From: an uncultured Bacteroidaceae bacterium
GTDB lineage: Bacteria > Bacteroidota > Bacteroidia > Bacteroidales > JAADGE01
DNA: 64,000 nucleotides
Assembly (NCBI GenBank): GCA_964472505.1
Contig: CAYYQW010000002.1
Span: 43,750-107,749, forward strand
Reading direction: 5' to 3'
In this document: positions 1 to 48,518 of the stretch, piece after piece
Position numbering within the stretch: position 1 is the first letter of the stretch
Layout of the letters: the number at the start of each line of letters is the position of its first letter
The notes under the pieces: generated by a model
Database searches by the model: none
Seen by the model: the letters and a program-made list of their open reading frames with translations, nothing else
Told to the model about the DNA's origin: nothing
Position numbers and translations under genes: made by a program

Positions 1-1
1 A

Positions 2-1846
2 GATATTTCTTGTGTAAAATGCCATACGGATGTTACACCGGATCACGAAGAACGCCCGTGCATCAGCGCAGAAAAACCGGATTGTTCCAACTGCCATTCG
101 GATATTTCACAATTTTATTTGGCTTCATCGCACGGAGCTGCCCATTTGGATAATGACCCCAATGCACCATACTGCATTGATTGTCACGGCGGACATGATG
201 TATTGGAAGTTTCCGACTCCGAAGCGAGAGCATATCGCGGAAATATTCCCAAACTTTGCGGCGACTGCCATTCTGATGACACCGAAATGCCCGAAGATAA
301 AACTTCGTACAAAGATTACTCACAAAGTGTGCACGGAAAAGGCTTAACAAGCAAAGGGCTGCTTGTAAGCGCAGTCTGTACCGATTGCCATACCACACAT
401 TTTATTCTTAACTCAGAAGACGAACGTTCGTCAACCAATCATTTCAATGTAGCCACTACCTGTGCAAGCTGCCACAAAGGCATTTATGACGAATATATTA
501 AAAGTCAACATGCTGTTTCAAAAGAAAGTGATAAAAAATATCCGACTTGCGACAATTGCCATACATCGCATACCATTACCGAAATAAGCACTGATGAATT
601 TATGTATGAAATCATGCACCAGTGCCGAGAATGCCATGTGGATTTGGCTGATTCATATTTGGAAACCTACCACGGAAAAGCTTATCTGCTTGGCTCAGAT
701 AATGCCGCTCGTTGCTCCGATTGCCACGGTTCTCACAACATCTACGGAATGGAGCACCCGGAATCAACCGTGCATTTTGATAATATAATTGAAACATGTA
801 AGCAATGCCACACAAACGCCAACGAAAAATTCACGGGATATCTCACACATGCCACTCATTACAACAAAAAGAAATTCCCGGAACTTTATTATACCTATTG
901 GGCAATGACCGGTTTACTGATAGCGGTATTTACCTTTTTCGGAATCCACACCATACTTTGGATTCCTCGTTCAATAAGAGAACGAAGAAAAAACAAAAAA
1001 GCCGGTATTAAGACAAGCGGACGCATTAAATATGTAAAACGATTCGAGAAAGCTCAAATCATCACACACCTTTTTGTTATAATAAGCTTTTTATCATTGG
1101 CCGTTACCGGAATGATTCTAAAATTCGCACACACCGAATGGGCGCAAACCATTGTTAAAATATTCGGAAGTGTGGAAGGCGCCGGTGTTATCCACAGAAT
1201 TGGAGCAACTATTACGTTTGGCTATTTTATTTACCATATCATACATCTAATACAATTACGAAAACGAAAAGGCTTGAGTTTTAAATCATTTTTCTTTGGA
1301 AAAGACTCGCTGGTACCCACCGGAAAAGATTTCAAAGATTTTTGGGCTACCATAAAATGGTTTGTAGGCGCAGGACCGAAACCGGCTTACGGACGCTGGA
1401 CTTATTGGGAAAAATTTGATTATATGGCCGTATTTTGGGGTGTTGCCGTTATTGGTTTCACGGGCTTAATGCTTTGGTTTCCGGAATTTTTCTCTTTGTT
1501 TTTGCCCGGCAAGTTCATCAACATTGCTCAAATCATACACAGCGATGAAGCACTTATGGCCGTAGGTTTTATCTTTACCGTGCATTTTTTCAATACCCAT
1601 TTGCGTCCCGATGCGTTCCCAATGGATACTGTAATTTTTACGGGACACATGCCTTTGGAAAAATTCAAAGAAGAACGTCCGGAAGAATATAAAGAGCTTA
1701 AAGAATCCGGAAAATTAGAAGAACTAACAGAAGAAAAAGAGTTTTCAAAACTCAGGATGCAAGTTATTCGTGCAGCAGGCTTTACTTTTGTAGCCATTGG
1801 GCTTATAACCGTAGCGCTAATAGTTTGGTCGTTGATTGCATTGTAA
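2..1846 (+). CDS. Multiheme c-type cytochrome fused to a membrane b-type cytochrome domain (CbcL-like candidate quinol:cytochrome oxidoreductase). The 5' end lies outside the window.
   Basis: Frame 2 is open from the window edge, so the TTG start at 119 in the ORF track is an artefact; the upstream codons read DISCVKCH...CSNCH. The visible part has ten CXXCH motifs (CVKCH, CSNCH, CIDCH, CGDCH, CTDCH, CASCH, CDNCH, CRECH, CSDCH, CKQCH). These are followed by about 5-6 hydrophobic helices with conserved His residues (ITHLF, VIHRIG, YHIIHL, TVHFFNTHL), as in FdnI/HydC-type cytochromes b. Confidence 0.8.
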   Translation, partial: DISCVKCHTDVTPDHEERPCISAEKPDCSNCHSDISQFYLASSHGAAHLDNDPNAPYCIDCHGGHDVLEVSDSEARAYRGNIPKLCGDCHSDDTEMPEDKTSYKDYSQSVHGKGLTSKGLLVSAVCTDCHTTHFILNSEDERSSTNHFNVATTCASCHKGIYDEYIKSQHAVSKESDKKYPTCDNCHTSHTITEISTDEFMYEIMHQCRECHVDLADSYLETYHGKAYLLGSDNAARCSDCHGSHNIYGMEHPESTVHFDNIIETCKQCHTNANEKFTGYLTHATHYNKKKFPELYYTYWAMTGLLIAVFTFFGIHTILWIPRSIRERRKNKKAGIKTSGRIKYVKRFEKAQIITHLFVIISFLSLAVTGMILKFAHTEWAQTIVKIFGSVEGAGVIHRIGATITFGYFIYHIIHLIQLRKRKGLSFKSFFFGKDSLVPTGKDFKDFWATIKWFVGAGPKPAYGRWTYWEKFDYMAVFWGVAVIGFTGLMLWFPEFFSLFLPGKFINIAQIIHSDEALMAVGFIFTVHFFNTHLRPDAFPMDTVIFTGHMPLEKFKEERPEEYKELKESGKLEELTEEKEFSKLRMQVIRAAGFTFVAIGLITVALIVWSLIAL

Positions 1847-1869
1847 AAACTCCTAATAACATTTAACTT

Positions 1870-1900
1870 AAAAGCCCGAAACATAATTGTTCGGGCTTTT
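1870..1900. terminator. Bidirectional intrinsic terminator between convergent genes
   Basis: The stem is AAAAGCCCGAA / TTCGGGCTTTT with a 9-nt loop. An A-run lies on the left and a T-run on the right. Confidence 0.6.
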
Positions 1901-1923
1901 TAATTAGCTAATTATTCTAAAAA

Positions 1924-2475
1924 CTACTTCAAATGTTTTTCCAACTCTTGTTTAAGCCTCCGCCCTCGGAGGTTGGTGGCTACAATAATACCGTCGCCGT
2001 CAATTAAGAAATTACTTGGTATGCCGCGCACACTATACTTAGCTGCTCCTTCAGAGTTCCACCCTTTAAGGTCGCTTACATGGTATGGCCATTTTAAGTT
2101 ATCATCTTCAATGGCTTTTACCCAAGACGCTTTGTTATTATCAAGCGAAACTCCATAAACAGTAAAACCGGAACCATTCTTAAATTCTTTATCTTTAAAT
2201 TCGTCATAATTAGCAACTACGTGAGGATTTTCACGGCGGCACGGGCCACACCAGGCTGCCCAAAAATCAATCAATACATATTTGCCCTGCAAAGAAGGTA
2301 AAGCGATAGAGTCACCGTCAGGCGAAAGATATTCAAGCTCGGGAGCTTTGTCTCCAATTTCAATACCTACTTTTGGCGTATCCTCAGTATTCTGAGTGGT
2401 TTTAACTTGTCCTTTCTGCGCCGAGAGCGACAACACAAAGAAAAGAGCTGCAATTGTTACAAATATTCGTTTCAT
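1924..2475 (-). CDS. TlpA/ResA-like periplasmic thiol:disulfide oxidoreductase (thioredoxin fold)
   Basis: The protein has a WCGPC active-site motif and a signal peptide (MKRIFVTIAALFFVLSLSAQ). The start was moved to the ATG at 2475. The gene lies next to cytochrome c maturation genes. Confidence 0.85.
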   Translation of the reverse strand: MKRIFVTIAALFFVLSLSAQKGQVKTTQNTEDTPKVGIEIGDKAPELEYLSPDGDSIALPSLQGKYVLIDFWAAWCGPCRRENPHVVANYDEFKDKEFKNGSGFTVYGVSLDNNKASWVKAIEDDNLKWPYHVSDLKGWNSEGAAKYSVRGIPSNFLIDGDGIIVATNLRGRRLKQELEKHLK

Positions 2476-2635
2476 AAAATAAAGTTTATGGGCTTTATTA
2501 CCAAAAAGAGACAATAGTACCCGATTTAAAAAATTGTTTCTAATTTTGAGTGCTGAATATATAACTCAAAATTAAATAAAAGATTATGCAGTCTTTTATT
2601 TTTTTACCATTAAGTTTTAAAGCAGGCCGACAATA

Positions 2636-2667
2636 AAAAAGGCCGACATGTATTTGTCGGCCTTTTT
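2636..2667 (-). terminator. Intrinsic terminator downstream of the 2685-3446 gene
   Basis: The hairpin is AAAAAGGCCGACA-loop-TGTCGGCCTTTTT. A T-run is available on either strand. Confidence 0.6.
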
Positions 2668-2684
2668 ACGATTTCTTAAAGCAA

Positions 2685-3446
2685 TTACTTGAGTTCTGAT
2701 TCCTCAACTAAGACTTTATAAAAGTATCCGTATCCGAAATCTTTATCCAGTACTACAGTTCCTTCAAAGATAACGGTATCTCCTTCTTCTACAGCCTCTA
2801 AAGTTGTGAGCGTTAGGTCAAAATCACCGTCATGCTCCGTTCCGTCTTGCAAATGCACCCAATTACGATCCATAATGGCCGGACTGAATTTAGTAACTAC
2901 ACCGCTTACTTTTACCGGTTTTCCGTCATATTTATCTTTATTTTTGTATAACTCTTCGATAGTTATCGCACCTTCAGGGGTTGCTACGGTTATTTCCTGT
3001 TTTACGGCTTGGTGTTTACCGCTTTGCTCGGTAACGGCTTTTTCAGTATCATGAGGATTTCCCATTCCGTGAGGGCTTTCCATACCGTGCGGCGAATCAC
3101 CATGGGCATGTTCTTGATTCTCTGAAATCGGCTTGGTAGAAATATTGTCCACAAATAATATATTATCAAAAGTGCGTTCGAGCTCTTTGCTTTCAAAATT
3201 CTCCATAACCATGGCACCTGCGTAGTAATATTCATCGCCTACATTGGCATCCGTTTTTGACACAGCCATCCATTTCTCTTCTCCGGCTTCATCTATTTTC
3301 AGGTAGGTGTAGTTTGAGCTTTGAATCACCTCTTTTACGGTTACCGGACTTTGTTGGTCAGCTTCTCCTGATTCGGAACCGTTCTCTGAGCCGCAGGCTG
3401 CAAAAAGAAAAAGAATAGCTATTGCGTAAATTAAATTTTTGTACAT
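2685..3446 (-). CDS. Lipoprotein with two OB-fold-like halves and a His/Met-rich linker (function unknown, possible metal binding)
   Basis: The N-terminus has a lipobox (LFAAC). The central tract reads HAHGDSPHGMESPHGMGNPHD. The C-terminal half (GKPVKVSGVVTKF...NWVHLQDG) resembles YgiW/BOF-type OB-fold proteins from memory only. Confidence 0.6.
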   Translation of the reverse strand: MYKNLIYAIAILFLFAACGSENGSESGEADQQSPVTVKEVIQSSNYTYLKIDEAGEEKWMAVSKTDANVGDEYYYAGAMVMENFESKELERTFDNILFVDNISTKPISENQEHAHGDSPHGMESPHGMGNPHDTEKAVTEQSGKHQAVKQEITVATPEGAITIEELYKNKDKYDGKPVKVSGVVTKFSPAIMDRNWVHLQDGTEHDGDFDLTLTTLEAVEEGDTVIFEGTVVLDKDFGYGYFYKVLVEESELK

Positions 3447-3753
3447 AGTTTTCTGTTATTTTAAATTATTAAATATTTGCATATCAAAATACAAAAATAA
3501 CAACTATTCTTTTTTTCAATGCAAATTTTATAATTTCTGCAATGTTTTTTAAAACAAATAAAAATAAAAACACACAATAAAATGTATTTTCATCGGCCAT
3601 GCTTTCAAAATGACAGGCGGTAGAAACTGAAAATAAAGAATTTAGCATCCGTAATTATCAATAAAGACCTAAGTGCTTTAAAATTCACTTCTTAAAAAAA
3701 AATCAAGACAAGGTCTTTCATTAAAATATCTTTAAATCTTAATTATTTTCTGC

Positions 3754-3761
3754 TATTTTTG
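3754..3761 (+). promoter_or_regulatory. Putative Bacteroidota -7 promoter box (TATTTTTG) for ccsBA
   Basis: The sequence matches TAnnTTTG and ends 17 nt upstream of the ATG at 3779. It sits inside the palindrome TTCTGC-TATTTTT-GCAGAA. Confidence 0.35.
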
Positions 3762-3778
3762 CAGAAAAATTTTTATTT

Positions 3779-6700
3779 ATGAAAACGATATACAACTTTT
3801 TAGCATCTAAAAAATTAACCCTCATTTTGTTGTTGGCCTTATCCGTTGCAACCGGAATAGCAACTTTTGTGGAAGAGGCACACGATACCGAAACCGCTAA
3901 AACTTTAATCTACAGCGCAAGGTGGTTTGAAATTCTTCTGGCTCTTACGGTATTGAATCTCGTACTGGTACTGTACGAATTCGGAATAGGAATAAAAAAC
4001 AGACCGGGCATATTCATTTTACACATTGCTTTTATAGTAATGCTTATCGGAGCAGCACTAACACGCTATGTAGGTTACGAAGGCGTAATGCATATTCGTG
4101 AAGGGAGTCAATCGAACGAAATTCATACCTACTCGGCATTTTTCAAAGCCAAACATACAGAAAACGGAGACAGTACAATAAAAGAAGAAGGAATAACCAT
4201 TGCCAAGTTGGAAACATCACCTTTTTCATTTAACATCCCAACCAAATCCGGAGATTTAAAAATCAGATATAAAGCATATATCCCGCGAGCAAGCAAAACC
4301 ATACGCCAAGTAAGTGAAGGAGGTAAAGAATATCTGGAAATATACACGGCAGGAAGAAGCCGCGGCAATACAAATTTCATATCGCCGGGCGAAAGCCTTA
4401 GTATGGATGAAACGAGCTTTTCATTTGAACCGCAAAACGAGATAAACCAAGCCGGTATTGTTGTGAAAAAAGAAGGAAAAGGCTTTAATATCCGCTCGAG
4501 CGAAAGAATCATACGTTCGACTCCCCAAGGACAAGTAATTGATACACTTAAGATTGATTCCGTCTATGTTTTGGAAAAAGATATTGTATATAATTTACCG
4601 TCTCAAATGTTTGTTTACACCAATTATTATACAAGCGGAATCATTGAATACACATCACAAAACACTGACCGAAGCCTAAAAGACATAATTGTGGTTGCGG
4701 CAGAACTTCAGGGGCAAACTAAGGATTTATATGTACCGGGAGGCAGTAATTATACAGCCGAGTACGATACATATTCAGTCAACAGCACAGAAATTGACTT
4801 AGCCTACGGAATAAAAACAATTGAATTGCCTTTTGCTCTTCAATTAAACGATTTCATACTGGAACGCTACCCCGGCTCCAAAAGCCCGAAATCTTATGAA
4901 AGTCAAGTAACATTAATAGACAAACGAAACGGAACAAAAGAAAAACACAGAATATATATGAATAATGTATTGGATTATGACGGCTATCGTTTTTTTCAAT
5001 CGTCTTATGACCAAGATGAGAAAGGTACGATTCTGTCAGTCAGTTATGATTTTTGGGGTAAATGGGTAACTTATATCAGCTACTTCCTTTTATTTTTAGG
5101 ATTTTTGATACCCTTCTTTAAGAAAAAGTCGCGCTTCAACCTGCTGCGCAAGCGAATAAAAGAAATCAGAGCCGCTCGAAAAGCGCTCATGATTAGCCTG
5201 CTCATCGCAATTGGCTCGCTTGGCAGTGCTCAGGCACAAAATCCGACTGCTACGGTAGATAAAGCGCATTTAAGCAAATTTGAAGAGACCATTGTTCAAT
5301 CATTCGGCGGAAGATTTGAGCCGGTTCATACGCTTGCTGTGGATGTATTGCATAAGGTTTCAAAAACACACACGATTAGTACTCCCGAAAAGGGGAAATT
5401 AAGCCCTATGGAAGCCTTTACAGATATGATGCTCAATCCGCAATACTGGCAAAGTCAAGCCATTGTAAACATATCCAATGAAGCCATTCGGCAGATAGTA
5501 GGCATTAGCGGAGAATATGCAAGCTTTAATCAGTTTTTTGATGCTCGCGGACATTTCAAATTAGGCCAACAATCTGAAGAAGCTTTCAGAAAAAGCCCGG
5601 CAGAACAATCAAAATTCGATAAAGAAGTAATGAAAGTTAACGAACAACTCAACATACTCTCCATGGCCTTTAACGGAGATATGTTACGCATATTCCCCGG
5701 CGAGAAACTGGAAAATTTCAAATGGATTGCTCCTACCGATTCTTTGGCCTACCGCCCGATAACCGGAAAGCTCTCCGTAATTAATGAAGACCTTCAGATA
5801 CAGCCATTTACATTTAACAACTTGTTCGTTCACTACATCAATGCTTTACGCAACGGCGTGATGACTAATGACTACTCTCGAGCCGACCGTATTTTGTCGT
5901 ACATTAAATCCATTCAACGGCAAAGCACGGCTGCCCATATACTGCCCTCGGAAACAAAATTAAAAATGGAGGTACATTACAACAATGCCCGCATATTTGT
6001 AGTGCTGAAATACCTGTATATGATACTGAGTGTGGTTCTGCTTTTACTCACTTTTACCGAAAACTTAAAGGCAAAGCACTCGCCCAAACTCAGCTTGCTC
6101 ACAAACATTCTGTTTGGTGTATTGGCAGCGGCCTTTCTATATCACACCTACGGCATGGGACTCAGATGGTACATTGCCGGGCACGCACCTTGGTCCAACG
6201 GATACGAATCCTTAATATTAGTAGCTTGGGGCGGCTTGCTGGCCGGATTTATTTTTATGAAATACTCACGTATTACTCTTGCAGCAACGGCCTTATTAGC
6301 ATTTTTTGTCTTGCTTACGGCCGGTTTCAGCACTTACGATCCGAAAATGACACCACTGGTACCCGTTCTGGATTCTTATTGGTTAATCATTCACGTAGCG
6401 GCTATGGTTGTGAGTTACGGTTTTCTGGGTATAGGTTTTATTCTCGGAATTATAAATCTGTTTATTTATCTCTTCAAGAAAGAACATAATAAAACACGCA
6501 TAAACCTCACCATAAAAGAGCTGACTAATATTAATGAACTAAATCTGCAAATCGGACTGTTTTTGGCCGTAGCCGGAACTTTTCTCGGTGCCATTTGGGC
6601 CAATGAATCTTGGGGCCGATACTGGGGATGGGATGCCAAAGAAACCTGGGCATTAATCATTCTGCTTGTTTATGCCATAGTTATCCACATGCGGCATTTA

Positions 6701-6943
6701 CCCAAATTCAATGATGCGCTGGTATTTAATATTGCATCGGTTATTGGTTTTGCCAGTGTAATGATGACTTTCTTTGGCGTAAACTATTATCTTACAAAAG
6801 GAATGCACAGCTATGCAGCCGGTGACAAAACAGTCTTCCCGCTTTACGCATGGTTTATTATTATCGGTGTTTTGGCACTGATAACAGCTGCCATAGTCAA
6901 AGAAAAATATATTTTGAAAGATGAAAAAATAAAAACCAAGTAG
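3779..6943 (+). CDS. ccsBA: System II cytochrome c synthase, fused CcsB(ResB)-CcsA
   Basis: The protein is 1054 aa with a ResB-like N-terminal half. The C-terminal half is polytopic and carries the WWD signature WGRYWGWDAKETWALI plus conserved His residues. Fused CcsBA is known in Bacteroides and Helicobacter. Confidence 0.9.
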   Translation: MKTIYNFLASKKLTLILLLALSVATGIATFVEEAHDTETAKTLIYSARWFEILLALTVLNLVLVLYEFGIGIKNRPGIFILHIAFIVMLIGAALTRYVGYEGVMHIREGSQSNEIHTYSAFFKAKHTENGDSTIKEEGITIAKLETSPFSFNIPTKSGDLKIRYKAYIPRASKTIRQVSEGGKEYLEIYTAGRSRGNTNFISPGESLSMDETSFSFEPQNEINQAGIVVKKEGKGFNIRSSERIIRSTPQGQVIDTLKIDSVYVLEKDIVYNLPSQMFVYTNYYTSGIIEYTSQNTDRSLKDIIVVAAELQGQTKDLYVPGGSNYTAEYDTYSVNSTEIDLAYGIKTIELPFALQLNDFILERYPGSKSPKSYESQVTLIDKRNGTKEKHRIYMNNVLDYDGYRFFQSSYDQDEKGTILSVSYDFWGKWVTYISYFLLFLGFLIPFFKKKSRFNLLRKRIKEIRAARKALMISLLIAIGSLGSAQAQNPTATVDKAHLSKFEETIVQSFGGRFEPVHTLAVDVLHKVSKTHTISTPEKGKLSPMEAFTDMMLNPQYWQSQAIVNISNEAIRQIVGISGEYASFNQFFDARGHFKLGQQSEEAFRKSPAEQSKFDKEVMKVNEQLNILSMAFNGDMLRIFPGEKLENFKWIAPTDSLAYRPITGKLSVINEDLQIQPFTFNNLFVHYINALRNGVMTNDYSRADRILSYIKSIQRQSTAAHILPSETKLKMEVHYNNARIFVVLKYLYMILSVVLLLLTFTENLKAKHSPKLSLLTNILFGVLAAAFLYHTYGMGLRWYIAGHAPWSNGYESLILVAWGGLLAGFIFMKYSRITLAATALLAFFVLLTAGFSTYDPKMTPLVPVLDSYWLIIHVAAMVVSYGFLGIGFILGIINLFIYLFKKEHNKTRINLTIKELTNINELNLQIGLFLAVAGTFLGAIWANESWGRYWGWDAKETWALIILLVYAIVIHMRHLPKFNDALVFNIASVIGFASVMMTFFGVNYYLTKGMHSYAAGDKTVFPLYAWFIIIGVLALITAAIVKEKYILKDEKIKTK

Positions 6944-6967
6944 CAGAAAGCTGACTCGAGAAATTAT

Positions 6968-7006
6968 AAATGCCGTCCGAAATCAAATGCTCGGACGGCA
7001 TTTTTA
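6968..7006 (+). terminator. Intrinsic terminator after ccsBA
   Basis: A 13-bp stem AAATGCCGTCCGA / TCGGACGGCATTT is followed by a T-run. Confidence 0.7.
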
Positions 7007-7252
7007 GCATCGGTTCCGACAGGTTTTTATTCTGATTTTTTTCGTATTTTAGTATCGATAATGCCTTAAATCCGGAAGATGTGACATGTCTGATTGAAGT
7101 ACAAACAGGTGGGGACACCTGTTTGGGTGAGATTTGCTTCAATCGGTGTCCTCACCGGCAGCACGCAGAAAAAGACATTCGGAATTAATGTAATGAACGA
7201 AAAACTAATGAAAGAGTCAGTTAGGTGTAGTTGAAATCTTAAAATTAAACCA

Positions 7253-7960
7253 ATGAAAACACAATTAATTTCTTTAATTCTTTTAGTCGTCTTGTCCCAT
7301 TCTTTATCGGCGCAGCGTATTGGTTATCAGGAAATTGATCCCGACAATGTGAGTACATGGCGAGCAGATTCGCCTGAAGCTTATCAGGGCGTCTATCATT
7401 TTGGCGAATCGGAAACGGAATGGGAGCTTAGCTTAATATTTGCCGAAGGACAATGCTACGGGCAAATATCATCCGGCAATTGGAATGCCGAAGGCAATTG
7501 GGTTGTAAATTACACCAATCTGAAAAATACCGAACTGCAAGACAATTGGCTGTTTTCCGACCAAATTAACGGCGAATTTGTGATGTATTACAATGAAAGT
7601 GTTCTTATGAAAGGCTTTAAACTTGACAATTCGAATGACGACCCGGGCGGCAAGGGCTTATATGAAATCGGTTTACAGCATTATCCGATTGAACAATATT
7701 TCGACGGCCGGTTTATTCAAGCTTCTTTAAGAGCGTTAAAGCCTGAAGAATTACAAAAAATGTCAGCTTACGAATTAAAAATAATGCGCAATGAAATATA
7801 TGCCCGCTACGGATACCGCTTTATTCCGGGCGGCGCTATGGACAAATATTTTTCCGATCAAACATGGTATCGCGCAAAGCATGATGATGTAAGTTCATTT
7901 CTTAGCGATTTGGAAATAAAAAATATTCGCATAATTCAGAAAGCCGAAAGGGAGAAATGA
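7253..7960 (+). CDS. YARHG domain-containing secreted protein
   Basis: The protein has a signal peptide and the motif MRNEIYARYGYRF, which is characteristic of the YARHG domain. Confidence 0.8.
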   Translation: MKTQLISLILLVVLSHSLSAQRIGYQEIDPDNVSTWRADSPEAYQGVYHFGESETEWELSLIFAEGQCYGQISSGNWNAEGNWVVNYTNLKNTELQDNWLFSDQINGEFVMYYNESVLMKGFKLDNSNDDPGGKGLYEIGLQHYPIEQYFDGRFIQASLRALKPEELQKMSAYELKIMRNEIYARYGYRFIPGGAMDKYFSDQTWYRAKHDDVSSFLSDLEIKNIRIIQKAEREK

Positions 7961-8000
7961 CTTTGACAGAACTAACTGATTGCCGGCTAACTTTCCAACA

Positions 8001-8558
8001 TTACCCATAGCCGTTTAAATCGCCGGGAGCATTGAAATTTTCAAAAGTATAATTAGTATCCACATAGGCCGTGCGAATTTGCTTCAAAAAATTCTGAACT
8101 TTAAAATCTCCCTTTTCTATCTGTTCAACAATAACAGGCAGTACCTCTTTGCTGTAGCAAGCGGTAAGAGGTTCAATTTTTCCCTTAGGATTACGCGGTA
8201 CAGCAGCATCAAAGCCGTCTATTTTGTTTAACAGAAGATGAAAAAGCTCCTTAGTAAGAAAAGGATTGTCGCAAGGTGCAATCAAATTCAATTTGTTGCC
8301 CGAAAGCCTGAGTGAAGCTTCAATTCCGCCCAAGGGCCCAACATTTTTATAATTATCGGCAACAATAGGGAAATTCAGTTTCTTATAATCTTCATTATTT
8401 GTACTGATAATTATTTCATCAGCCAATTCGTGCATAAGCTCCGTTGCATAATTAATGAGCAGCTTACCTCTAAATCGAATTAACGCTTTATCCCTTCCCA
8501 TTCGGCTGCTTTTACCGCCTGAAAGTATGATTCCGCTTATCTGTTTTCCGTCGAACAT
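8001..8558 (-). CDS. mobA: Molybdenum cofactor guanylyltransferase
   Basis: The N-terminal motif GIILSGGKSSRMGRDKAL is present. The start was moved to the ATG at 8558 (MFDGKQ). Confidence 0.8.
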   Translation of the reverse strand: MFDGKQISGIILSGGKSSRMGRDKALIRFRGKLLINYATELMHELADEIIISTNNEDYKKLNFPIVADNYKNVGPLGGIEASLRLSGNKLNLIAPCDNPFLTKELFHLLLNKIDGFDAAVPRNPKGKIEPLTACYSKEVLPVIVEQIEKGDFKVQNFLKQIRTAYVDTNYTFENFNAPGDLNGYG

Positions 8559-8688
8559 AGCGCTGAACTTTTTTTTCAAATTTAATATATTATTGATGCA
8601 AAGAAAGAAGCCTGCAAGCAAAAAGTTGCAGGCTCTGAATTATGTTAGAATATTTGCGAATGCGCTCCGCTTACAATCTGTCATTCAA

Positions 8689-9537
8689 CTACATGCGTAC
8701 TCGAATGTTAAAGCCAAACATAATTTCACCTTCGGTAAAATCATTTTTATTAAACAAAAAGTTTTGCTGCGGGATAATTTCTCTGAAAGGAGAGGCATAT
8801 ATTTGGAATACGTGAGTCATGGTTACCAATTCTACTCCGAGAGCCAAATTGGGTTTGGGTTCAAAAGCTTCTGTATATTCAGTCATCCCCTCAATATTAA
8901 AAGGATGTCCGTATTCGGCAATTACGGCAATATCATTGTACACTTTTGCACGCCCGCCAAAAGTAAGGCTAATGTTATCGTGATTGATGAGTGAATCAGC
9001 TGCATTTACATGGCTGAATGCCGGAGCTAACAGAAAAGAAATCTTATCGTTAACTCTGTGAGTAATGATTAGCTGTCCAAAATAAGATAAACGGTTAGTG
9101 AACGCATAATCTTTACCGAAAGCTGCTTCATCGCGAGCGTCAATTGCCATGTTACCGTATAATGTAACACCTACGGGCATGGAGTAAGATTCGGTTTGTT
9201 TAAGTGCCTGCCATTTAGCTTGGAAAGATTGCAATTTATTATTTTTTTCGGTACCGAAACCGACCATGATATCATCGGTAATTCCGTAATCAATTCCCAA
9301 ATAGATATTTGAAGGTGCATATAAACCAAAGAGATCGGAAACTTCCTCAATTTTACCGAAACGGTGCTGAATCATGTACTCCCATGAGCCCTTATAGGCC
9401 GTTTCATTGGTTCTGGTATCAATAAGCATTCCGCCTGAAAACGGGGCTATTACCGGAAAATCATTGTCTTGAGCAAAGATATTGGCATCTGCAAAAAAAG
9501 CAAATATAATAGCTGTCAGAAATATTTTTTTTAACAT
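8689..9537 (-). CDS. Putative outer-membrane beta-barrel protein
   Basis: The protein has a signal peptide (MLKKIFLTAIIFAFFADANIFAQ). The sequence alternates hydrophobic and polar residues and is rich in aromatics and Gly. It lies directly downstream of a cytochrome c lipoprotein gene. Confidence 0.6.
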   Translation of the reverse strand: MLKKIFLTAIIFAFFADANIFAQDNDFPVIAPFSGGMLIDTRTNETAYKGSWEYMIQHRFGKIEEVSDLFGLYAPSNIYLGIDYGITDDIMVGFGTEKNNKLQSFQAKWQALKQTESYSMPVGVTLYGNMAIDARDEAAFGKDYAFTNRLSYFGQLIITHRVNDKISFLLAPAFSHVNAADSLINHDNISLTFGGRAKVYNDIAVIAEYGHPFNIEGMTEYTEAFEPKPNLALGVELVTMTHVFQIYASPFREIIPQQNFLFNKNDFTEGEIMFGFNIRVRM

Positions 9538-9639
9538 AGTGTTGTCTTTAAAATAATTAATATTTGAATGGATTATTTAGATAGATACAAAACAGGAGGT
9601 TTATTGGGGTCTGTCTTGCCGCACGACAATTAAAGTCGG

Positions 9640-10011
9640 TTATTCCTCTGCTCCGCCTTCTATCCAGGCTTTAATAAGCCCCAATTCCTGCGATGTAACA
9701 AAACTGTTGTGGCTGCCTTCGTTAAGTTTTATCAACAGGTAGCTGTCATCAGCATTTTCGGTATCAATATACGGCACGCCGTCACCGGAGCTTCCGTCTA
9801 TAAGGGTTTGATAGCTGTTTCCTTCTAAGTTCAAACCGCCGGCATTTCCGTGGCAAGATGTGCAATTATCCGTAATAATGCTTTCAATATTTTCGGCATA
9901 ACTCAGGCCGTCTTCCGGAATTACTACGTCTTCCTGTTCAATCATTTTGTATTCGCAAGAAGCCGTAAAAAGCAAGGCTGCCAATACATAAAAAACGTGT
10001 TTAAATTTCAT
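9640..10011 (-). CDS. Monoheme c-type cytochrome lipoprotein (PSCyt1-like domain)
   Basis: The protein has a lipobox (LFTASC), a single CTSCHGN heme motif and a C-terminal WIEGGA motif, as in planctomycete-type cytochrome c domains. Confidence 0.75.
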   Translation of the reverse strand: MKFKHVFYVLAALLFTASCEYKMIEQEDVVIPEDGLSYAENIESIITDNCTSCHGNAGGLNLEGNSYQTLIDGSSGDGVPYIDTENADDSYLLIKLNEGSHNSFVTSQELGLIKAWIEGGAEE

Positions 10012-10237
10012 AGGTATAAAAGTTTATCTGTGATTAAATAAAATATTTTCAGTATTAAACATATCGGAACTACTTCTATTTCCAATTTTAAAGTCCGACA
10101 CAAAAATATCAATTTCTTTTAGGGTAATCAAGAAAGAATAAGAATTATAAACTGATTTTATCGCATCAAAAAATTGATATATATCAATTTCAGTAGATTC
10201 GTATTGTTTACAATATGGTTTTTTCAATTCCTTTCTC

Positions 10238-10280
10238 AAAAAAAAGGAAGCTGCAAAGCCACTATGCTTATGCAACTTCC
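10238..10280 (-). terminator. Possible intrinsic terminator after the multiheme cytochrome gene
   Basis: On the minus strand the sequence reads GGAAGTTGCA-15 nt-TGCAGCTTCC followed by TTTTTTTT. The loop is large, so confidence is moderate. Confidence 0.45.
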
Positions 10281-10306
10281 TCTAACTGTCAATTAATTAT
10301 AATTGT

Positions 10307-11332
10307 TTATTTTGCTTGCATTGCTTCAATTGTATTATCAAGAAGCGCATTGATGTAGGAAGGATGATGCATCCCGCCGCTGCGATCTTCTTTAATACCG
10401 ATATAATTGAAGTATGCTTGTGCCTCTACCAAGGTATATGTACCGGGTATCACATGGTATTCTGCATCAACAACACCGGCATCAAGTAATAAGCCTGCTA
10501 ATACGTCTAATTTATTATTTACATTAGCCTGTACGCCTTCAAACTCTGTAAAGTTAGCATCCGAATGACAGCCGACACTGTTACATGTATTTAAACTTGC
10601 GTTAAACGAATGTCCGCCTTGGTTATAGTCGGCATCATACTCGCCCATGTGGCAACCGGTACAACTTACCGCACCATGAGTGTGTGCACCATCCGGATAA
10701 TTAACCGAGCCTGCAACTTCGGCAAAGCCTACACCGGCCATTAAGTTAGCTTGCGGGCCATGATGAGGCCCCCAGTGTGTGCTGGTTATTTCAAAATTCC
10801 CGCTGCCGTCAGCAACCGGACCGGCTGTTCTTGTTTGGTGACAGAATGCACATAAATTGGCATCGCCAAAATCATATGTAACAGTTTCATTGTAAATAAA
10901 AGCGATGGGTTCTGTTATTCTGAAACCGTAATCCGTAGAGTCAAAATTGGTATGTAGTCCGTGGCAAGTTCCGCAATTCCATGCAGAGGGAGCACTGATA
11001 TCACCGGAAACTTCACCATTGGTTGTGTACTCTACAAAACCTTCGTGTGAATGGCATTCGGCACAATCGGCGCGTGCGCCGGCATAAGCTACGGCAGCAT
11101 CACCGGAATAATGCTGTGATGTGTTAAATTCAGCTTGAATGACAGCAATTTGAGTTGATTCGTGGCACTCAAGACAAGATACAAGGGCATCATCTCCGTC
11201 AACACCGTCAACACCGTCTTCACCGGCAGGTCCGGCGGGTCCTTCTTTTGTACAGCTCGTTACCATAAAAAGCATAAAAGCCATAGCAATTAATCCTAAA
11301 AAGGAAATCCGTTGAAATTTTCTCATAACCAT
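10307..11332 (-). CDS. Multiheme c-type cytochrome lipoprotein with an N-terminal collagen-like G-X-Y tract
   Basis: The protein has a lipobox (MVTSC) and six G-X-Y triplets (GPAGPAGEDGVDGVDGDD). It has five CXXCH motifs (CLECH, CAECH, CGTCH, CAFCH, CTGCH) and one CX4CH motif (CNSVGCH). Confidence 0.85.
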   Translation of the reverse strand: MVMRKFQRISFLGLIAMAFMLFMVTSCTKEGPAGPAGEDGVDGVDGDDALVSCLECHESTQIAVIQAEFNTSQHYSGDAAVAYAGARADCAECHSHEGFVEYTTNGEVSGDISAPSAWNCGTCHGLHTNFDSTDYGFRITEPIAFIYNETVTYDFGDANLCAFCHQTRTAGPVADGSGNFEITSTHWGPHHGPQANLMAGVGFAEVAGSVNYPDGAHTHGAVSCTGCHMGEYDADYNQGGHSFNASLNTCNSVGCHSDANFTEFEGVQANVNNKLDVLAGLLLDAGVVDAEYHVIPGTYTLVEAQAYFNYIGIKEDRSGGMHHPSYINALLDNTIEAMQAK

Positions 11333-11834
11333 ATAGTTTTTGTTTATTAATAGAATGCTTTTTTGTTAAAGACCCCTATATGGGATGCAAAAAACAATAA
11401 TGTAAAAATATAAAAGATTTAGATGAAAACATCTTATTTAAAATGTTGTCCGGCTGTTAGAAAGTTAATATATATCAATTTTTTAATTGACATTATCAGA
11501 GACAAGATGTCAGATATAAGATATAAGACAATTTTGCTTTCGGGCTGCGAGAGCAGGAGTTTATATCATTTTTGTAAGTTTGTCCGGGGAGAAAACAAGC
11601 GGAAAACCGTCTTTCGGCTGAATTTGACCTGCCGGCGTCTCTTGACCCGGCAGCGTCTGATACACTTTGAACGAAAAAATTATAAATATTAATTATCCAC
11701 TAATTCAATACTTTTTGTCTGCACCCAATCAACGTATAAAAGTCCAAACAGACGTTTTGAAGACCGGGATTATCAGCTTTTCATTAATAACAATCACTTT
11801 TTATCGACAGATTGAATACTGAAAAACTTAAGTT

Positions 11835-12788
11835 TTAAAAAACCGCTTCCACTATTTTTGCAATATTATCGGATTCGCCGAGTGAGTAATAATGTAAAGC
11901 GGGAACACCAAAATCTTTTAATTCCTTCGACTGCATAACGGTCCATTCTATTCCGGCCTGTCGGGCGGCTGCATTGTTTTTGCATGCGGCAATTTCTTTA
12001 ACCAGGTCTTGAGGAATATCAATATTAAAGGTCTGTGGCAATAATTGCATATCTTTTATTCGGCTTATCGGTTTTAGGCCGGGGACTATGGGCACATCAA
12101 TACCGACGGCTCTGCAGCGTTTTACAAAATCGAAATATTTTTGATTATCAAAAAACATTTGCGTAACAATGTACTCAGCTCCGGCTTCTATTTTCTTTTT
12201 AAGGAAATACAAATCGTATTCCATATTAGGAGCTTCGAAATGCTTTTCGGGATAACCGGCTACCCCTACCGAAAAGTCGGTTTTAAAAGGGCTTTTTATA
12301 TCTCGATCCGTAAACTCACCTTTATTCATGGCAGCTATTTGCTCTACCAAATCTGTGGTATGCGCATGCCCGTTTTCTTTTGGTACAAAAAGCCTTTTAC
12401 CTTTAGGCGGATCACCGCGGAGTGCCAATAAATTATTAATACCCAGAAAATTGAGGTCAATCAATGCTTCTTCGGTTTCCTGCACGGAAAAGCCGCCGCA
12501 AATCACATGCGGCACTACCGTAATATCAAACCTATTATGAAGTGCCGAGGCTATGGCTACCGTACCGGGGCGTTTTTGCACCATTTGCTTTTCCAAAAGG
12601 CCGTCCGCTCGTTTTTTATATACGGCTTCTTCCTGGTGGTAAGTTACATTAATATATGAAGGCTGATACTTGAGCAAGGGTTCGGTTGCTCCGTAAAGTT
12701 CTTCAATATGATGTCCCTTTATAGGCGGTAATAACTCAAAAGTAAACAAAGGACTTGAGGCGTTTCTTAATTCTTGTGCTACATTCAT
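11835..12788 (-). CDS. metF: 5,10-methylenetetrahydrofolate reductase
   Basis: The full-length protein has a MetF-like sequence (FTFELLPP, YINVTYH, GVAGYPEKH, YIVTQMFFD). Confidence 0.9.
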   Translation of the reverse strand: MNVAQELRNASSPLFTFELLPPIKGHHIEELYGATEPLLKYQPSYINVTYHQEEAVYKKRADGLLEKQMVQKRPGTVAIASALHNRFDITVVPHVICGGFSVQETEEALIDLNFLGINNLLALRGDPPKGKRLFVPKENGHAHTTDLVEQIAAMNKGEFTDRDIKSPFKTDFSVGVAGYPEKHFEAPNMEYDLYFLKKKIEAGAEYIVTQMFFDNQKYFDFVKRCRAVGIDVPIVPGLKPISRIKDMQLLPQTFNIDIPQDLVKEIAACKNNAAARQAGIEWTVMQSKELKDFGVPALHYYSLGESDNIAKIVEAVF

Positions 12789-12859
12789 CGATTTCTCAAA
12801 TTCAATTTATGATTTCAAATGTTTGGCAATATAAGGCTTTACAAAAAACCGGCAAAACA

Positions 12860-14146
12860 TTATTCAAAATTATAAAAAAAGGCAAAATTCTCTTGGGAAG
12901 AACCATAAGCTATTAAAACGTTTTCATGGTTTCGGTAAAGGTGACGAATGTTGCTGTTGTTATAAAAAAGTGTATATTCTTCAAAATTTTGAGTTTCCAT
13001 GATACCGTAACCGGGAATTAGCAAAAAGTACCGGTTATTAATATGCTGTATTGATTTTGACATGGACGTATGAAATTCAGGTCGAACATTATGCATGTTC
13101 TGCCAAGTTTCACCGTAATCCTTCGATTTATAAACCGTAATCCCCTCATCCTGATTAATCAGAATAAAATCGCCGGCAGCCGTGATATAAAACTTTAGTG
13201 CTAATTCAGGAGCATCGGTAGGCTGCCAAGATATATCATCGACTCCTGATTTATAAAAACGGCCGAAATTGCTCAACATAAACAGACTGTCGTCAGAAAC
13301 CCGATAAATATCCCGAGCAAACTCGTTGTTTGCCAAACCATCGGATACATCTTCCCAACTTTGCCCTTTATCATTGGAAACAAAAAATGCTCGGTCATCG
13401 GAATAGCAACCCGCCCACAAAGTGCCGTCTCCACTTGTATTCAAACGATAAGCCGAATTGAGGTTTGCTAAAGGTTGCTCGCAGATTTCCCAAGAATTCC
13501 CTCGGTCTTGACTGATGCATATACCACCTGATGCGCCGGCAGAAAAATAATCCCCTTCGTCTGTCATCAGCAATTGGGTCGGGCATTGATCGTCTGGGGA
13601 GGGCATAAAATAAGCCCAGTTATAGTAATTATCCGTTTGCTTGTAAAAAAAGCATCCGGCTGCAAGTGTTGTTTTTTGTGTAAGGGTATCAAAAAGTACA
13701 TCTTTGATAAAGGGTACCGTTGTAAGATGCATTGTATCCCACCGACCGGGAGCAAAGGCAGTTCCTCGGATGATCTGTTCAAAATGCTTTTCCCCTTTTT
13801 TATCGGTAATAACGGCCTTTAATTTCTGGATGCTGCTTTCCGTACCGGTTTGCATATAAGTTAGAGCGCGATTATTTTTCACCGGTACAAAATCCCGTGA
13901 AACACTGCCGCCGCCGGTTATTATCTCGAAATGCACGATGAAGTCTTCGGCTTTATAGTCAGCACCTTCCACAGTCATTACTACGCCCACGGAATCGGAA
14001 AAATAGTCCCCGGCTTTGGCCGTTTGATAATTGCCTGTTGTATTTACCGAAAGGGAACGTGTTATTTCTGTAAAAGGAGCTTCACCGGGCGCACAGGCAA
14101 GAAAAAACAAAAAACTAAACAGCAGAAAAAAAGAAGATATTCTCAT
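12860..14146 (-). CDS. Lipoprotein with BNR/Asp-box repeats (beta-propeller-like)
   Basis: The protein has a lipobox (FFLAC) and three Asp-box motifs (SQDRGNSWE, SNDKGQSWE, SKDYGETWQ). Confidence 0.6.
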   Translation of the reverse strand: MRISSFFLLFSFLFFLACAPGEAPFTEITRSLSVNTTGNYQTAKAGDYFSDSVGVVMTVEGADYKAEDFIVHFEIITGGGSVSRDFVPVKNNRALTYMQTGTESSIQKLKAVITDKKGEKHFEQIIRGTAFAPGRWDTMHLTTVPFIKDVLFDTLTQKTTLAAGCFFYKQTDNYYNWAYFMPSPDDQCPTQLLMTDEGDYFSAGASGGICISQDRGNSWEICEQPLANLNSAYRLNTSGDGTLWAGCYSDDRAFFVSNDKGQSWEDVSDGLANNEFARDIYRVSDDSLFMLSNFGRFYKSGVDDISWQPTDAPELALKFYITAAGDFILINQDEGITVYKSKDYGETWQNMHNVRPEFHTSMSKSIQHINNRYFLLIPGYGIMETQNFEEYTLFYNNSNIRHLYRNHENVLIAYGSSQENFAFFYNFE

Positions 14147-14185
14147 AAGGCAACTAATTTTAGGAATTTTCGGTTATCTGTTTGC

Positions 14186-15472
14186 TTAAAAAGGAATAAT
14201 TATCCCGGCATGCAAAGCCAAAGATTGCATTCTGTAATCGAAATCATCCGTATTTTTTGCAAGACTGATAAATGAATGCTCAAAAACGGTATTGATTTTA
14301 AATATTAAAGCATCGCTAAAAGCCAATTGAAAGCCGGTCTGGGCAATAAAACCGACATCGGCTTTTTTGAAAAACTTATGTTGGGCATCGTACAAATGAT
14401 ACTTATAATCAGCTACCGAGCTTGGAGATTCCAAAGTTTGGTATGCATAGCCGATAGTGCGAGCATCGGTGCGCAGGCCGCCGTATAATCCGGCTCCCGC
14501 ATGAAAATGCGTAGGCTTGCTTCCACTTGCGCTGAGGATAAGAGGGACGTTTAAATAATCCAAATCGGTACACGCATCGACCCAAAAAGTATTTTCTGCC
14601 GGCTTATAAATATGGTATTGACTGCTGCTGTCGGTAATACCATAGGATTTTCGCTGAAACATAAGCGCCGTTTCAAAATACAAATTTCCCGATAAATTCA
14701 CCTTTAAACCCGCGCCGCCGCTAAATCCTATTTTGGATTTATAATGTTGGCTTTGCTCACCGCTCAAACCGGCGTATATAATACCGGCTCGGTAGTCAAA
14801 TACAAGATTCTTTTCGCCTGACTTATTTTCAGATGTTTCCGGTTTTTGGCTATTTCCGTCAAAAGTATAAGCCAAACCCATGAGAAACTCATAAGTTCCG
14901 TTTTGTCCCGGCATATTTCCCGTTTCTGTCAAACCTTCGGTATAGCGTAATTCTGTGCTGATACTAAAATTATCATTTAAAAAATATTCAGCCCCGTGCG
15001 ACAAGCTAAAACCGGTGTCATCAACAGTCATAGACTCTGAACCGTGCTTTTCATTTCGGTCAAACACCCGAGCATAATATGAACCCGCTGAGAAAAAAAA
15101 ACTTGGCTGATTAGAGAAGCTCAGTTTTACGGATGCAGGCAAGCGCAAAAAGTCATAATGATAAAAGACTTGATAAGGCATAACCGGCCAATAGGAGAAA
15201 TGCATATAATCATAATCTGTTGCATATGGCTCATAGCAGTAATAAACCGACAAATAATCCAAGCCCGTTGTAAAAGCTATGGCATTATTAAATGCGTATT
15301 CGGCTCGCAGGCCTGTCACCGAGCCCGTTTTATGCGCCCACTTTCCGCTGTAGGTTTCGGTGTTTTGCAAATTGGAAATATTGATTCCGGAATTAAAATT
15401 CAGCTTAAAATTCTGTGAAAAGCCGGCACAGCTTGAGAGCAAAAAAACTGCTCCAATTAAAATATTTTTCAT
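14186..15472 (-). CDS. Outer-membrane beta-barrel protein (porin-family-like)
   Basis: The protein has a signal peptide and an alternating beta-strand pattern. It ends in a C-terminal Phe (GIIIPF), which is typical of outer-membrane proteins. Confidence 0.65.
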   Translation of the reverse strand: MKNILIGAVFLLSSCAGFSQNFKLNFNSGINISNLQNTETYSGKWAHKTGSVTGLRAEYAFNNAIAFTTGLDYLSVYYCYEPYATDYDYMHFSYWPVMPYQVFYHYDFLRLPASVKLSFSNQPSFFFSAGSYYARVFDRNEKHGSESMTVDDTGFSLSHGAEYFLNDNFSISTELRYTEGLTETGNMPGQNGTYEFLMGLAYTFDGNSQKPETSENKSGEKNLVFDYRAGIIYAGLSGEQSQHYKSKIGFSGGAGLKVNLSGNLYFETALMFQRKSYGITDSSSQYHIYKPAENTFWVDACTDLDYLNVPLILSASGSKPTHFHAGAGLYGGLRTDARTIGYAYQTLESPSSVADYKYHLYDAQHKFFKKADVGFIAQTGFQLAFSDALIFKINTVFEHSFISLAKNTDDFDYRMQSLALHAGIIIPF

Positions 15473-48394: not shown

Positions 48395-48518
48395 AATTTT
48401 TGCGTTTGAAGTAATATTCACCAAAGATATAAAATGCTTAAAATAAAAAAAAACTTTTAAGCTTGCATTGTATCGCCGGAATAAATATCTTTGGTACCAC
48501 AAAGCAAAAAACATAACC

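Follow-up and report, generated by a model that had tools for sequence, protein, structure and literature searches.

CbcL of Geobacter sulfurreducens (GSU0274; named CbcY in G. metallireducens) is an inner-membrane menaquinol oxidase for low-potential extracellular acceptors. The protein has 619 aa, nine haem motifs at positions 34, 57, 82, 105, 129, 158, 186, 229 and 257, and six helices (PMC6295460, Table S2). Homologues of CbcL, MtrH and MtoC have been catalogued in 15 phyla, with 3 to 23 haem motifs and usually six helices (Zhong & Shi 2018, PMC6295460), and the catalogue includes two 19-haem proteins, PKP08298.1 of HGW-Bacteroidetes-4 (913 aa) and Cabys_319 of Caldithrix abyssi (920 aa) (Table S2 of the same paper). 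Here we describe a gene at the left edge of a stretch of 64,000 nucleotides from an uncultured Bacteroidaceae bacterium (assembly GCA_964472505.1, contig CAYYQW010000002.1, positions 43,750 to 107,749 of the forward strand; hereafter, the window). Our data point toward a 19-haem member of this family, in which a multihaem cytochrome c is fused to a predicted dihaem cytochrome b and which is very probably a quinol:cytochrome c electron-transfer module.

A 19-haem cytochrome c fused to a predicted cytochrome b

The target gene and its parts lie in the window as follows; residue numbers here and below are those of the window fragment unless the full protein is named.

2 to 1846, plus strand: 3′ two-thirds (aa 303–916 of the full protein) of a 916-aa CbcL-family gene, a fusion of a 19-haem cytochrome c and a predicted dihaem cytochrome b
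2 to 871, plus strand: predicted periplasmic c-type haem domain, the second (membrane-proximal) ten-haem module (motif count against shuffles; Pfam)
878 to 967, plus strand: linker transmembrane helix TM0, predicted to run from periplasm to cytoplasm (hydropathy, AlphaFold helix 293–334, conservation)
1034 to 1606, plus strand: predicted FdnI/HydC-type four-helix dihaem cytochrome b core (profile, Foldseek, conserved His)
1394 to 1423, plus strand: RWTYWEKFDY motif at the predicted cytoplasmic end of TM3; conservation within the family is highest here
1748 to 1840, plus strand: sixth, C-terminal transmembrane helix (hydropathy; AlphaFold helix 583–613; PMC6295460, Table S2)

The frame has 614 codons, ends with its first stop at 1844–1846 and is open to the left edge of the window. 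The complete gene was found on a contig (L082) of the Logan assembly of run ERR2407578, retrieved by exact-sequence look-up of the adjacent ResA-like protein; a sibling ENA record of this run is labelled microbial mat metagenome. The reverse complement of L082 matches window positions 1–7119 with 0 mismatches and reaches 8,077 nt further upstream. On this contig the gene occupies 5274–8024 (minus strand) and encodes 916 aa with 19 CXXCH motifs, so that residue 1 of the window fragment is residue 303 of the full protein; the 5′ 906 nt lie beyond the left edge of the window, and the ATG is located 906 nt upstream of window base 2. The N-terminus is a typical Sec signal (MRILLINLLLLTAGLTAFA). A start at the TTG at position 119 was rejected, since the frame is open to the edge, homologues cover residue 1 and L082 supplies the upstream ATG. 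Indeed, one homologue (P0001) is 94% identical to the fragment at 100% coverage, with an alignment that begins at fragment residue 1. The original prediction, made from the window alone, had already called the TTG start wrong and had described ten CXXCH motifs followed by a multi-helix domain as the visible part of a ten-haem or larger fusion; both parts were found at 2–1846, and the full gene bears out the "or larger". Automated labels such as "cytochrome c3 family protein" or "hypothetical" overlook the cytochrome b half of the target.

The ten CXXCH motifs of the fragment start at aa 4, 28, 58, 86, 126, 154, 183, 208, 238 and 266 (codon starts at nt 11, 83, 173, 257, 377, 461, 548, 623, 713 and 797), compared to a mean of 0.14 and a maximum of 2 in 2000 residue shuffles of the first 290 aa. 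Pfam models Cytochrome_C7 and Cytochrom_c3_2 exceed their cut-offs in the haem domain. Residues 21–300 and 301–600 of P0001 are 37% identical to each other (E 5e-46), and therefore the c module has been duplicated in tandem: the 19-haem c domain consists of two tandem copies of a nine-to-ten-haem module, which explains why there are 19 haems rather than the 9 of CbcL. Among the best 120 homologues, all but two have 19 motifs, and lengths range from 867 to 962 aa. An exported N-terminal multihaem c domain characterizes the CbcL/MtrH/MtoC family (3–23 CXXCH; 9 in CbcL), and the target has one, with 19 CXXCH motifs behind the Sec signal.

The C-terminal part has six hydrophobic helices, located by hydropathy and in the AlphaFold model at about aa 293–322, 350–374, 390–423, 468–492, 503–532 and 583–613, a pattern that matches the six-helix membrane domain of the family (PMC6295460, Table S2). 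Lys/Arg-rich loops follow TM0, TM2 and TM4 and mark the predicted cytoplasmic side. A single-sequence phmmer search of the fragment against the PDB returned no match to the b domain; a profile was needed. With a profile built from 27 diverse family members, the sole PDB match was E. coli FdnI (1KQF chain C, 1kqf_C; E 2.4e-13). The AlphaFold model of the b domain (pLDDT 90.5) matched FdnI in Foldseek with a probability of 1.00 and a TM of 0.77, and no other PDB entry matched it significantly; with FdnI as the only significant match, the family of the target has no solved structure. In the profile alignment, His356 (codon 1067–1069), His398 (1193–1195), His513 (1538–1540) and His528 (1583–1585) fall on FdnI His18, His57, His155 and His169. 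We take FdnI His18 and His169 to be the ligands of haem bC and His57 and His155 those of haem bP in 1KQF; a literature search for confirmation of this ligand numbering found none, and the residue numbers come from the profile alignment. In an alignment of 44 fused homologues, Geobacteraceae CbcL among them, none of these four His varies, and the membrane domain is the most strongly conserved part of the whole protein.

The generic family models see this relationship less clearly. PF01292 (Ni_hydr_CYTB) scores 24.6–28.3 bits on the target, with a gathering cut-off of 30.1, and is detected at E ≤ 0.01 in 26 of the 27 family members; the NCBIfam FdnI models stay far under their cut-offs (TIGR01583, 26 bits vs 115.85). 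The cytochrome b assignment of the original prediction, which hinged on paired His ligands and pointed to an FdnI/HydC, PF01292-like family, was therefore recovered by profile and fold and by the four conserved His, PF01292 alone remaining below threshold. As judged from the profile and the structure model, the membrane domain is a dihaem cytochrome b of the FdnI/HydC type. A stand-alone FdnI/HydC subunit was rejected: the domain is fused to a cytochrome c, and both PF01292 (24.6 bits) and TIGR01583 fall short. The neighbouring genes that were scanned included neither FdnG/H nor hydrogenase genes. When the b domain (aa 290–614) was used for a full HMMER scan, 2,302 clusters at 50% identity were returned, fused to 0–22 CXXCH motifs.

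Within RWTYWEKFDY, Y468, E470 and K471 are invariant. The motif aligns with FdnI 108–117 (GKYNAGQKMMF in FdnI), a segment that presumably holds residues lining the quinone/HQNO pocket, and by analogy with the FdnI structure, RWTYWEKFDY is the predicted menaquinol site. Two further His, His316 in TM0 (nt 947–949) and His533 just past TM4 (nt 1598–1600), are nearly invariant and have no counterpart among the FdnI ligands; they may contribute to a quinone site, a proton path or an additional haem ligand.

For the comparison with CbcL, GSU0274 itself was represented by a Geobacteraceae "cbcY" protein (P0342) and by proteins whose haem motifs are spaced exactly as in GSU0274. Starting from nine-haem representatives, a profile search retrieved P0371, P0386, P0388 and others with this spacing, along with "cbcY [Geobacteraceae bacterium]" and proteins of Trichlorobacter, Desulfuromonadales and Geobacteraceae that carry the annotation cytochrome c3 family. 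In BLASTP, the target and P0342 ("cbcY [Geobacteraceae bacterium]", MBP1752741.1) are collinear, with 39% identity over 553 aa (E 2e-126) and roughly 50% within the b domain; P0001 and P0371, whose haem spacing equals that of GSU0274, are 36% identical (E 7e-131). The shared architecture and the collinear homology to Geobacteraceae cbcY therefore uphold the CbcL-like label given in the original prediction, and on sequence grounds the target is a member of the CbcL/MtrH/MtoC family.

Distribution and a conserved gene island in relatives

Of 8,000 scored candidates (protein clusters at 90% identity), 7,693 passed an E value of 1e-3. A strict peptide-pattern scan, with one genome per species, confirmed relatives in 388 species genomes, and the best 80 of these 388 loci belong almost entirely to Bacteroidales (many of them Prolixibacteraceae) or to metagenome-assembled genomes labelled "Chlorobi" (Chlorobiota/Ignavibacteria-type). 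In the window itself, the DnaB protein is closest to "Bacteroidota bacterium" (78%) and to Bacteroidales (66–68%), in keeping with the assigned phylum. PKP08298.1 and Cabys_319 fall in the same length class as the target and have six helices and 19 CXXCH motifs with near-identical spacing; by sequence, the target belongs to their subfamily as a further, roughly 60%-identical member. Both were catalogued by BLAST and phylogeny only, without function, gene context or mechanism, and the paper on the Caldithrix genome contains no discussion of the 19-haem gene. The original prediction had expected the architecture to be uncommon in Bacteroidota and had seen in it a hint of an unusual respiratory branch. 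In view of the 388 species genomes, the more than 7,600 clusters and the 2018 catalogue, this expectation has to be given up: the architecture is neither rare in Bacteroidota nor newly seen, and the target is a further member of an already catalogued family.

To describe the surroundings of the relatives, neighbours from the window and from the locus of a 94%-identical relative (L001) were mapped by tblastn onto 81 loci, followed by the genes of a complete Prolixibacteraceae chromosome (L016). A conserved island emerged, typical at L016 4210–18099 and also present in L006, L008, L012, L022–L024 and others, with the following usual order:

1: Crp/Fnr-type regulator
2: five-haem (plus CX4CH) lipoprotein cytochrome
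3: monohaem lipoprotein
4: DUF5777 beta-barrel
5: CbcA-like seven-haem cytochrome with a C-terminal helix
6: CbcB-like 206-aa PF01292 cytochrome b (84.5 bits)
7: 19-haem gene
8: ImcH-like 500-aa protein with three N-terminal helices and one CX3CH plus six CXXCH motifs at the positions of Geobacter ImcH
9: tetrahaem c554-like cytochrome
10: CcsBA

Neighbours were counted in the 35 species loci that have full 10-kb flanks. Near the 19-haem gene, the tetrahaem gene is present in 32 of these; DUF5777, the lipoprotein cytochrome and the CbcB-like cytochrome b in 30 each; the CbcA-like seven-haem gene in 29; the Crp/Fnr regulator and a homologue of the L016 monohaem lipoprotein (window copy at 9640–10011) in 28 each; the ImcH-like gene in 27, in 23 of them immediately downstream; and CcsBA in 24. 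The island unites homologues of the three Geobacter inner-membrane quinol oxidases CbcBA, CbcL and ImcH. Homologues of cbcBA have been reported from Prolixibacter, Marinilabiliales, Labilibaculum and Caldithrix (Joshi, Chan & Bond, bioRxiv 10.1101/2021.04.15.440034), and both they and CbcL-family homologues have been noted in Bacteroidetes genera that are termed metal-reducing (PMC6295460; bioRxiv 10.1101/2021.04.15.440034); ImcH has been noted in Bacteroidota (Geobacter ImcH preprint). Our literature search on multihaem or extracellular electron transfer genes of Prolixibacteraceae and on ImcH in Bacteroidota found nothing specific.

Gene neighbourhood in the window

Downstream of the target, the window holds a set of genes for cytochrome c maturation and a module of putative outer-membrane proteins:

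1870 to 1903, no strand: G+C-rich hairpin flanked by A and T runs, where the target and the ResA-like gene converge
1924 to 2514, minus strand: ResA/TlpA-like thiol-disulfide oxidoreductase (Pfam AhpC-TSA, Redoxin and Thioredoxin_8; NCBIfam ResA under cut-off)
3779 to 6943, plus strand: fused ResB and CcsA (CcsBA) system II cytochrome c synthase, 1054 aa (Pfam ResB, Cytochrom_C_asm)
8689 to 9537, minus strand: DUF5777 outer-membrane beta-barrel protein, 282 aa (Pfam PF19089, E 4e-67)
9640 to 10011, minus strand: 123-aa monohaem c-type cytochrome with a lipoprotein-type signal (LLFTASC), one CXXCH and a weak cytochrome c551 match
10307 to 11332, minus strand: 341-aa lipoprotein-type multihaem cytochrome with five CXXCH and one CX4CH (LFMVTSC signal; Pfam Cytochrome_C7 just under cut-off)

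The TlpA/ResA-like and CcsBA genes are the dedicated maturation set that the original prediction had placed next to the target, and its outer-membrane-type cytochrome genes about 7 kb away are the two minus-strand genes beside the DUF5777 barrel. From its family, the ResA/TlpA-like product is predicted to reduce apocytochrome c cysteines. The CcsB model TIGR03144 scores 176.6 bits on CcsBA, under its cut-off of 187.6. Between these two genes lies a 253-aa lipoprotein with a weak DUF1980_C match (2685–3446, minus strand), whose homologues stand beside the target or CcsBA in L005, L025, L051, L058 and L077. The region 1847–1915 folds with −16.8 kcal/mol (z = −5.0 against shuffles), and the hairpin at 1870–1903 is likely a bidirectional intrinsic terminator; a consensus terminator scan did not list it, and direct folding revealed it. 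In L001, a 498-aa ImcH-like gene (12752–14335) lies between the stop codon of the target and the terminator, where the window has a 77-nt spacer (1847–1923) cleanly without that gene. Neither an ImcH-like nor a CbcBA-like gene is present in the 64-kb window.

The DUF5777 barrel and the two lipoprotein cytochromes lie 7–9 kb downstream on the strand opposite the target, a layout shared with L027, L035, L042 and L064. The barrel is a candidate outer-membrane component. A DUF5777 profile found no relative in the PDB, and a literature search found no paper mentioning DUF5777. Porin-cytochrome conduits of the MtrAB, PioAB or Pcc type combine a large 20-28-strand outer-membrane barrel with a periplasmic decahaem or octahaem cytochrome inserted into it; the neighbours here are a 282-aa DUF5777 protein and mono- and pentahaem lipoproteins, and no MtrB-like protein was seen. 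DUF5777 and the adjacent 123-aa monohaem lipoprotein loosely recall a split Cyc2-type cytochrome-porin. Between CcsBA and the DUF5777 module are genes for a YARHG-domain protein (7253–7960, plus strand) and a MobA-like molybdenum cofactor guanylyltransferase (8001–8621, minus strand); both are shared at the locus by L001 only, and the MobA-like gene hints at a molybdoenzyme elsewhere in the genome.

Upstream of the window, contig L082 carries a second CbcL-family gene (9683–12163, minus strand; 826 aa, 16 CXXCH), which is about 31% identical to the target and, with 67.9 bits, above the PF01292 cut-off. Homologues of this paralogue directly abut the target in L002, L004 and L005. Between the two CbcL-family genes, about 0.98–2.5 kb upstream of the window edge, lies a gene for a 506-aa octahaem cytochrome (8095–9615, minus strand). 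The order is thus 826-aa 16-haem fusion, 506-aa octahaem, target, on one strand and with gaps of about 70 nt, and it is identical in L001; a tetrahaem gene is divergent from this set. In the PDB, the octahaem protein matches IhOCC of Ignicoccus hospitalis (4QO5, E 6.4e-113), with weaker matches to HAO/HDH. IhOCC has been described as a HAO-clade octahaem nitrite reductase (PMC9250108). Among the 81 loci searched, an octahaem gene adjoins the target only in the same-lineage, 94%-identical L001.

Far from this locus, the window also encodes a 486-aa leucine-rich-repeat protein (48468–49928, plus strand) with strong sub-threshold matches to the Xanthomonas XopAE, XopAC and XopL effector models; the match to type III effectors probably reflects the repeats only.

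Proposed function and comparison with known systems

In our model, the Sec signal would export the 19-haem c domain to the periplasm, and the linker helix would return the chain to the cytoplasm. His356 and His528 would hold one b haem near the cytoplasm, and His398 and His513 would hold the other near the periplasm. Since RWTYWEKFDY is aligned with the presumed quinone-pocket segment of FdnI, menaquinol is probably oxidised on the cytoplasmic side, where the motif and the nearby haem would lie, with release of the protons to the cytoplasm. The electrons would cross the membrane outward via the two b haems, assisted by the membrane potential, and would then pass along the 19 c haems into the periplasm. 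Periplasmic and outer-membrane cytochromes may serve as acceptors, and candidates in this genome are the upstream IhOCC-like octahaem and the DUF5777 barrel with the two lipoprotein cytochromes. In Geobacter, acceptors below about −0.1 V require CbcL, for which a quinol site on the N side has been proposed (bioRxiv 10.1101/2021.04.15.440034, Geobacter ImcH preprint); furthermore, an energy-dissipating, potential-assisted scheme has been suggested for CbcL and CbcBA (Geobacter ImcH preprint). As a speculation, the duplicated haem wire may reduce or even abolish the need for soluble shuttles.

While the quinol:cytochrome c module itself is the firm part of this model, the physiology is less certain, and we lean only slightly toward anaerobic respiration of extracellular or otherwise low-potential acceptors. 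What favours extracellular or low-potential respiration is the island conserved in most relatives, where the barrel module is accompanied by CbcBA-like, ImcH-like and tetrahaem genes. Several observations weigh against it. The sequence seen of this genome has none of the ImcH-like, CbcBA-like and Crp genes that belong to the canonical island. At 282 aa, the DUF5777 protein is small, and no link between it and electron transfer has been demonstrated. PF01292 stays under its gathering cut-off on the target, and in all Bacteroidota members the binding of haem b, the oxidation of quinol and the direction in which electrons run are inferred. Last, a HAO-clade octahaem as immediate operon partner points to a soluble periplasmic rather than an extracellular substrate.

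This last point leads to the strongest rival, in which the target and its 16-haem paralogue would be menaquinol dehydrogenases for a periplasmic IhOCC-type octahaem reductase of nitrite, hydroxylamine or a related soluble substrate; the operon would then serve reduction of nitrogen oxides or similar compounds instead of extracellular electron transfer. The operon-like order paralogue-octahaem-target on L082 and in L001 and the close match of the octahaem to a described nitrite reductase speak for it; yet among the 81 loci searched, the octahaem gene adjoins the target in this lineage only; the loci of other species have either the paralogue immediately next to the target or an island with CbcBA-like genes instead. 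The known HAO- and Nrf-type reductases use small tetrahaem quinol dehydrogenases, so that a 19-haem wire would be superfluous. On balance, we regard this alternative as unlikely, though it deserves serious attention. The related possibility of a subunit of a standard respiratory complex (Nrf nitrite reductase, Mcc sulfite reductase or formate dehydrogenase-N) is hardly credible: weak sub-threshold NCBIfam matches to NrfH, NapC/NirT and the FdnI gamma subunit exist, but they are far under the curated cut-offs, the full-length homology is to CbcL, and the neighbouring genes that were scanned in the window and on L082 include no NrfA (CXXCK pentahaem), MccA or FdnG/H. A standard nitrite or sulfite reductase operon (NrfHA, MccA) was rejected on the same grounds, the octahaem being of the IhOCC/HAO clade. 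The original prediction named such an operon as a refutation of its reading; the adjoining IhOCC-like octahaem gene touches on this point, but the locus is no standard, well-characterised Nrf or Mcc operon.

Electrons might also flow the other way, as proposed for MtoC: from an extracellular or periplasmic donor through the c-haem wire and the b haems to menaquinone at the cytoplasmic side, building a proton-motive force like FdnI. The b domain is indeed built like FdnI, a cytoplasmic-side quinone reducer, and both Fe(III) reducers and Fe(II) oxidisers have members of the family, whose sequences show no feature that separates the directions (PMC6295460). However, the genes conserved around the target family encode homologues of ImcH and CbcBA, for which only a role as quinol oxidases in metal reducers is known, and no oxidase or autotrophy genes were seen near the target in the window. 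Most carriers are Bacteroidales of sediments, in general a group of anaerobic heterotrophs, and altogether the reverse direction appears improbable. A haem-free anchor or degenerate cytochrome b, which would leave a tethered periplasmic haem wire without a quinone reaction, could account for the low PF01292 and NCBIfam FdnI scores, but the four FdnI haem-ligand positions are invariant His in 44 homologues, and the membrane domain is the best conserved part and a confident match to the FdnI fold, which makes such an anchor very improbable.

Beyond extracellular or low-potential respiration as such, it is imaginable that the 19-haem protein is the inner-membrane end of an undescribed trans-envelope conduit of Bacteroidota, with the DUF5777 barrel and the mono- and pentahaem lipoproteins as a new outer-membrane module. 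The duplicated c-haem wire could be long enough to bridge much of the periplasm. We offer this as a tentative and rather doubtful idea; if true, the island (Crp/Fnr, CbcBA-like, CbcL-like, ImcH-like, tetrahaem, CcsBA) would be a self-contained, potential-tuned kit for extracellular respiration in abundant sediment Bacteroidales.

In anoxic sediments, aquifers and bioelectrochemical reactors, Bacteroidales abound as fermenters, and their respiration of minerals, humics or electrodes is poorly tested. The 19-haem family and its island are a concrete and widespread genetic candidate for it, in which homologues of three Geobacter inner-membrane quinol oxidases are paired with an uncharacterised outer-membrane barrel. 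The window gene alone adds little, the family and the 19-haem form being already catalogued, but it provides a testable target; the more interesting lead is the conserved Bacteroidales island with its DUF5777 outer-membrane module.

Among the known systems, E. coli FdnI shares with the target the four-helix dihaem b fold, the aligned His and a conserved motif at the quinone-pocket position. FdnI, however, is a separate 217-aa subunit that takes electrons from FdnGH and reduces menaquinone, whereas the predicted b domain of the target is fused to a c-haem wire, has two extra helices (the sixth, C-terminal helix, absent from FdnI, is typical of CbcL-family proteins) and an extended loop between TM2 and TM3. 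Its identity to FdnI is as low as about 15%. Geobacter CbcBA (CbcA, with seven haems and a C-terminal helix, and the dihaem cytochrome b CbcB) and ImcH also couple quinol oxidation to periplasmic multihaem cytochromes; unlike the target, CbcBA consists of split proteins with a b subunit well above the PF01292 cut-off, and ImcH lacks b haems. MtoC and MtrH of Fe(II)-oxidising and Fe(III)-reducing Betaproteobacteria, which we compare by their published description, have the same family membership and architecture as the target (PMC6295460). They are encoded with MtrAB/MtoAB porin-cytochrome genes, none of which were seen in MtrAB-like form at the locus of the target, and are proposed quinone reducers. 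The likeness to CbcL extends over the whole domain order: signal, multihaem c domain, linker helix, FdnI/HydC-type dihaem b domain and sixth helix recur in the target, with six helices at similar relative positions. The target differs in having 19 instead of 9 c haems and 916 instead of 619 aa, in the haem spacing of its membrane-proximal module and in its host, a member of the Bacteroidota rather than the Desulfuromonadota. Unlike the neighbours of CbcL, those of the target are an IhOCC-like octahaem and a 16-haem paralogue in this genome and CbcBA-like, ImcH-like and DUF5777 genes in its relatives.

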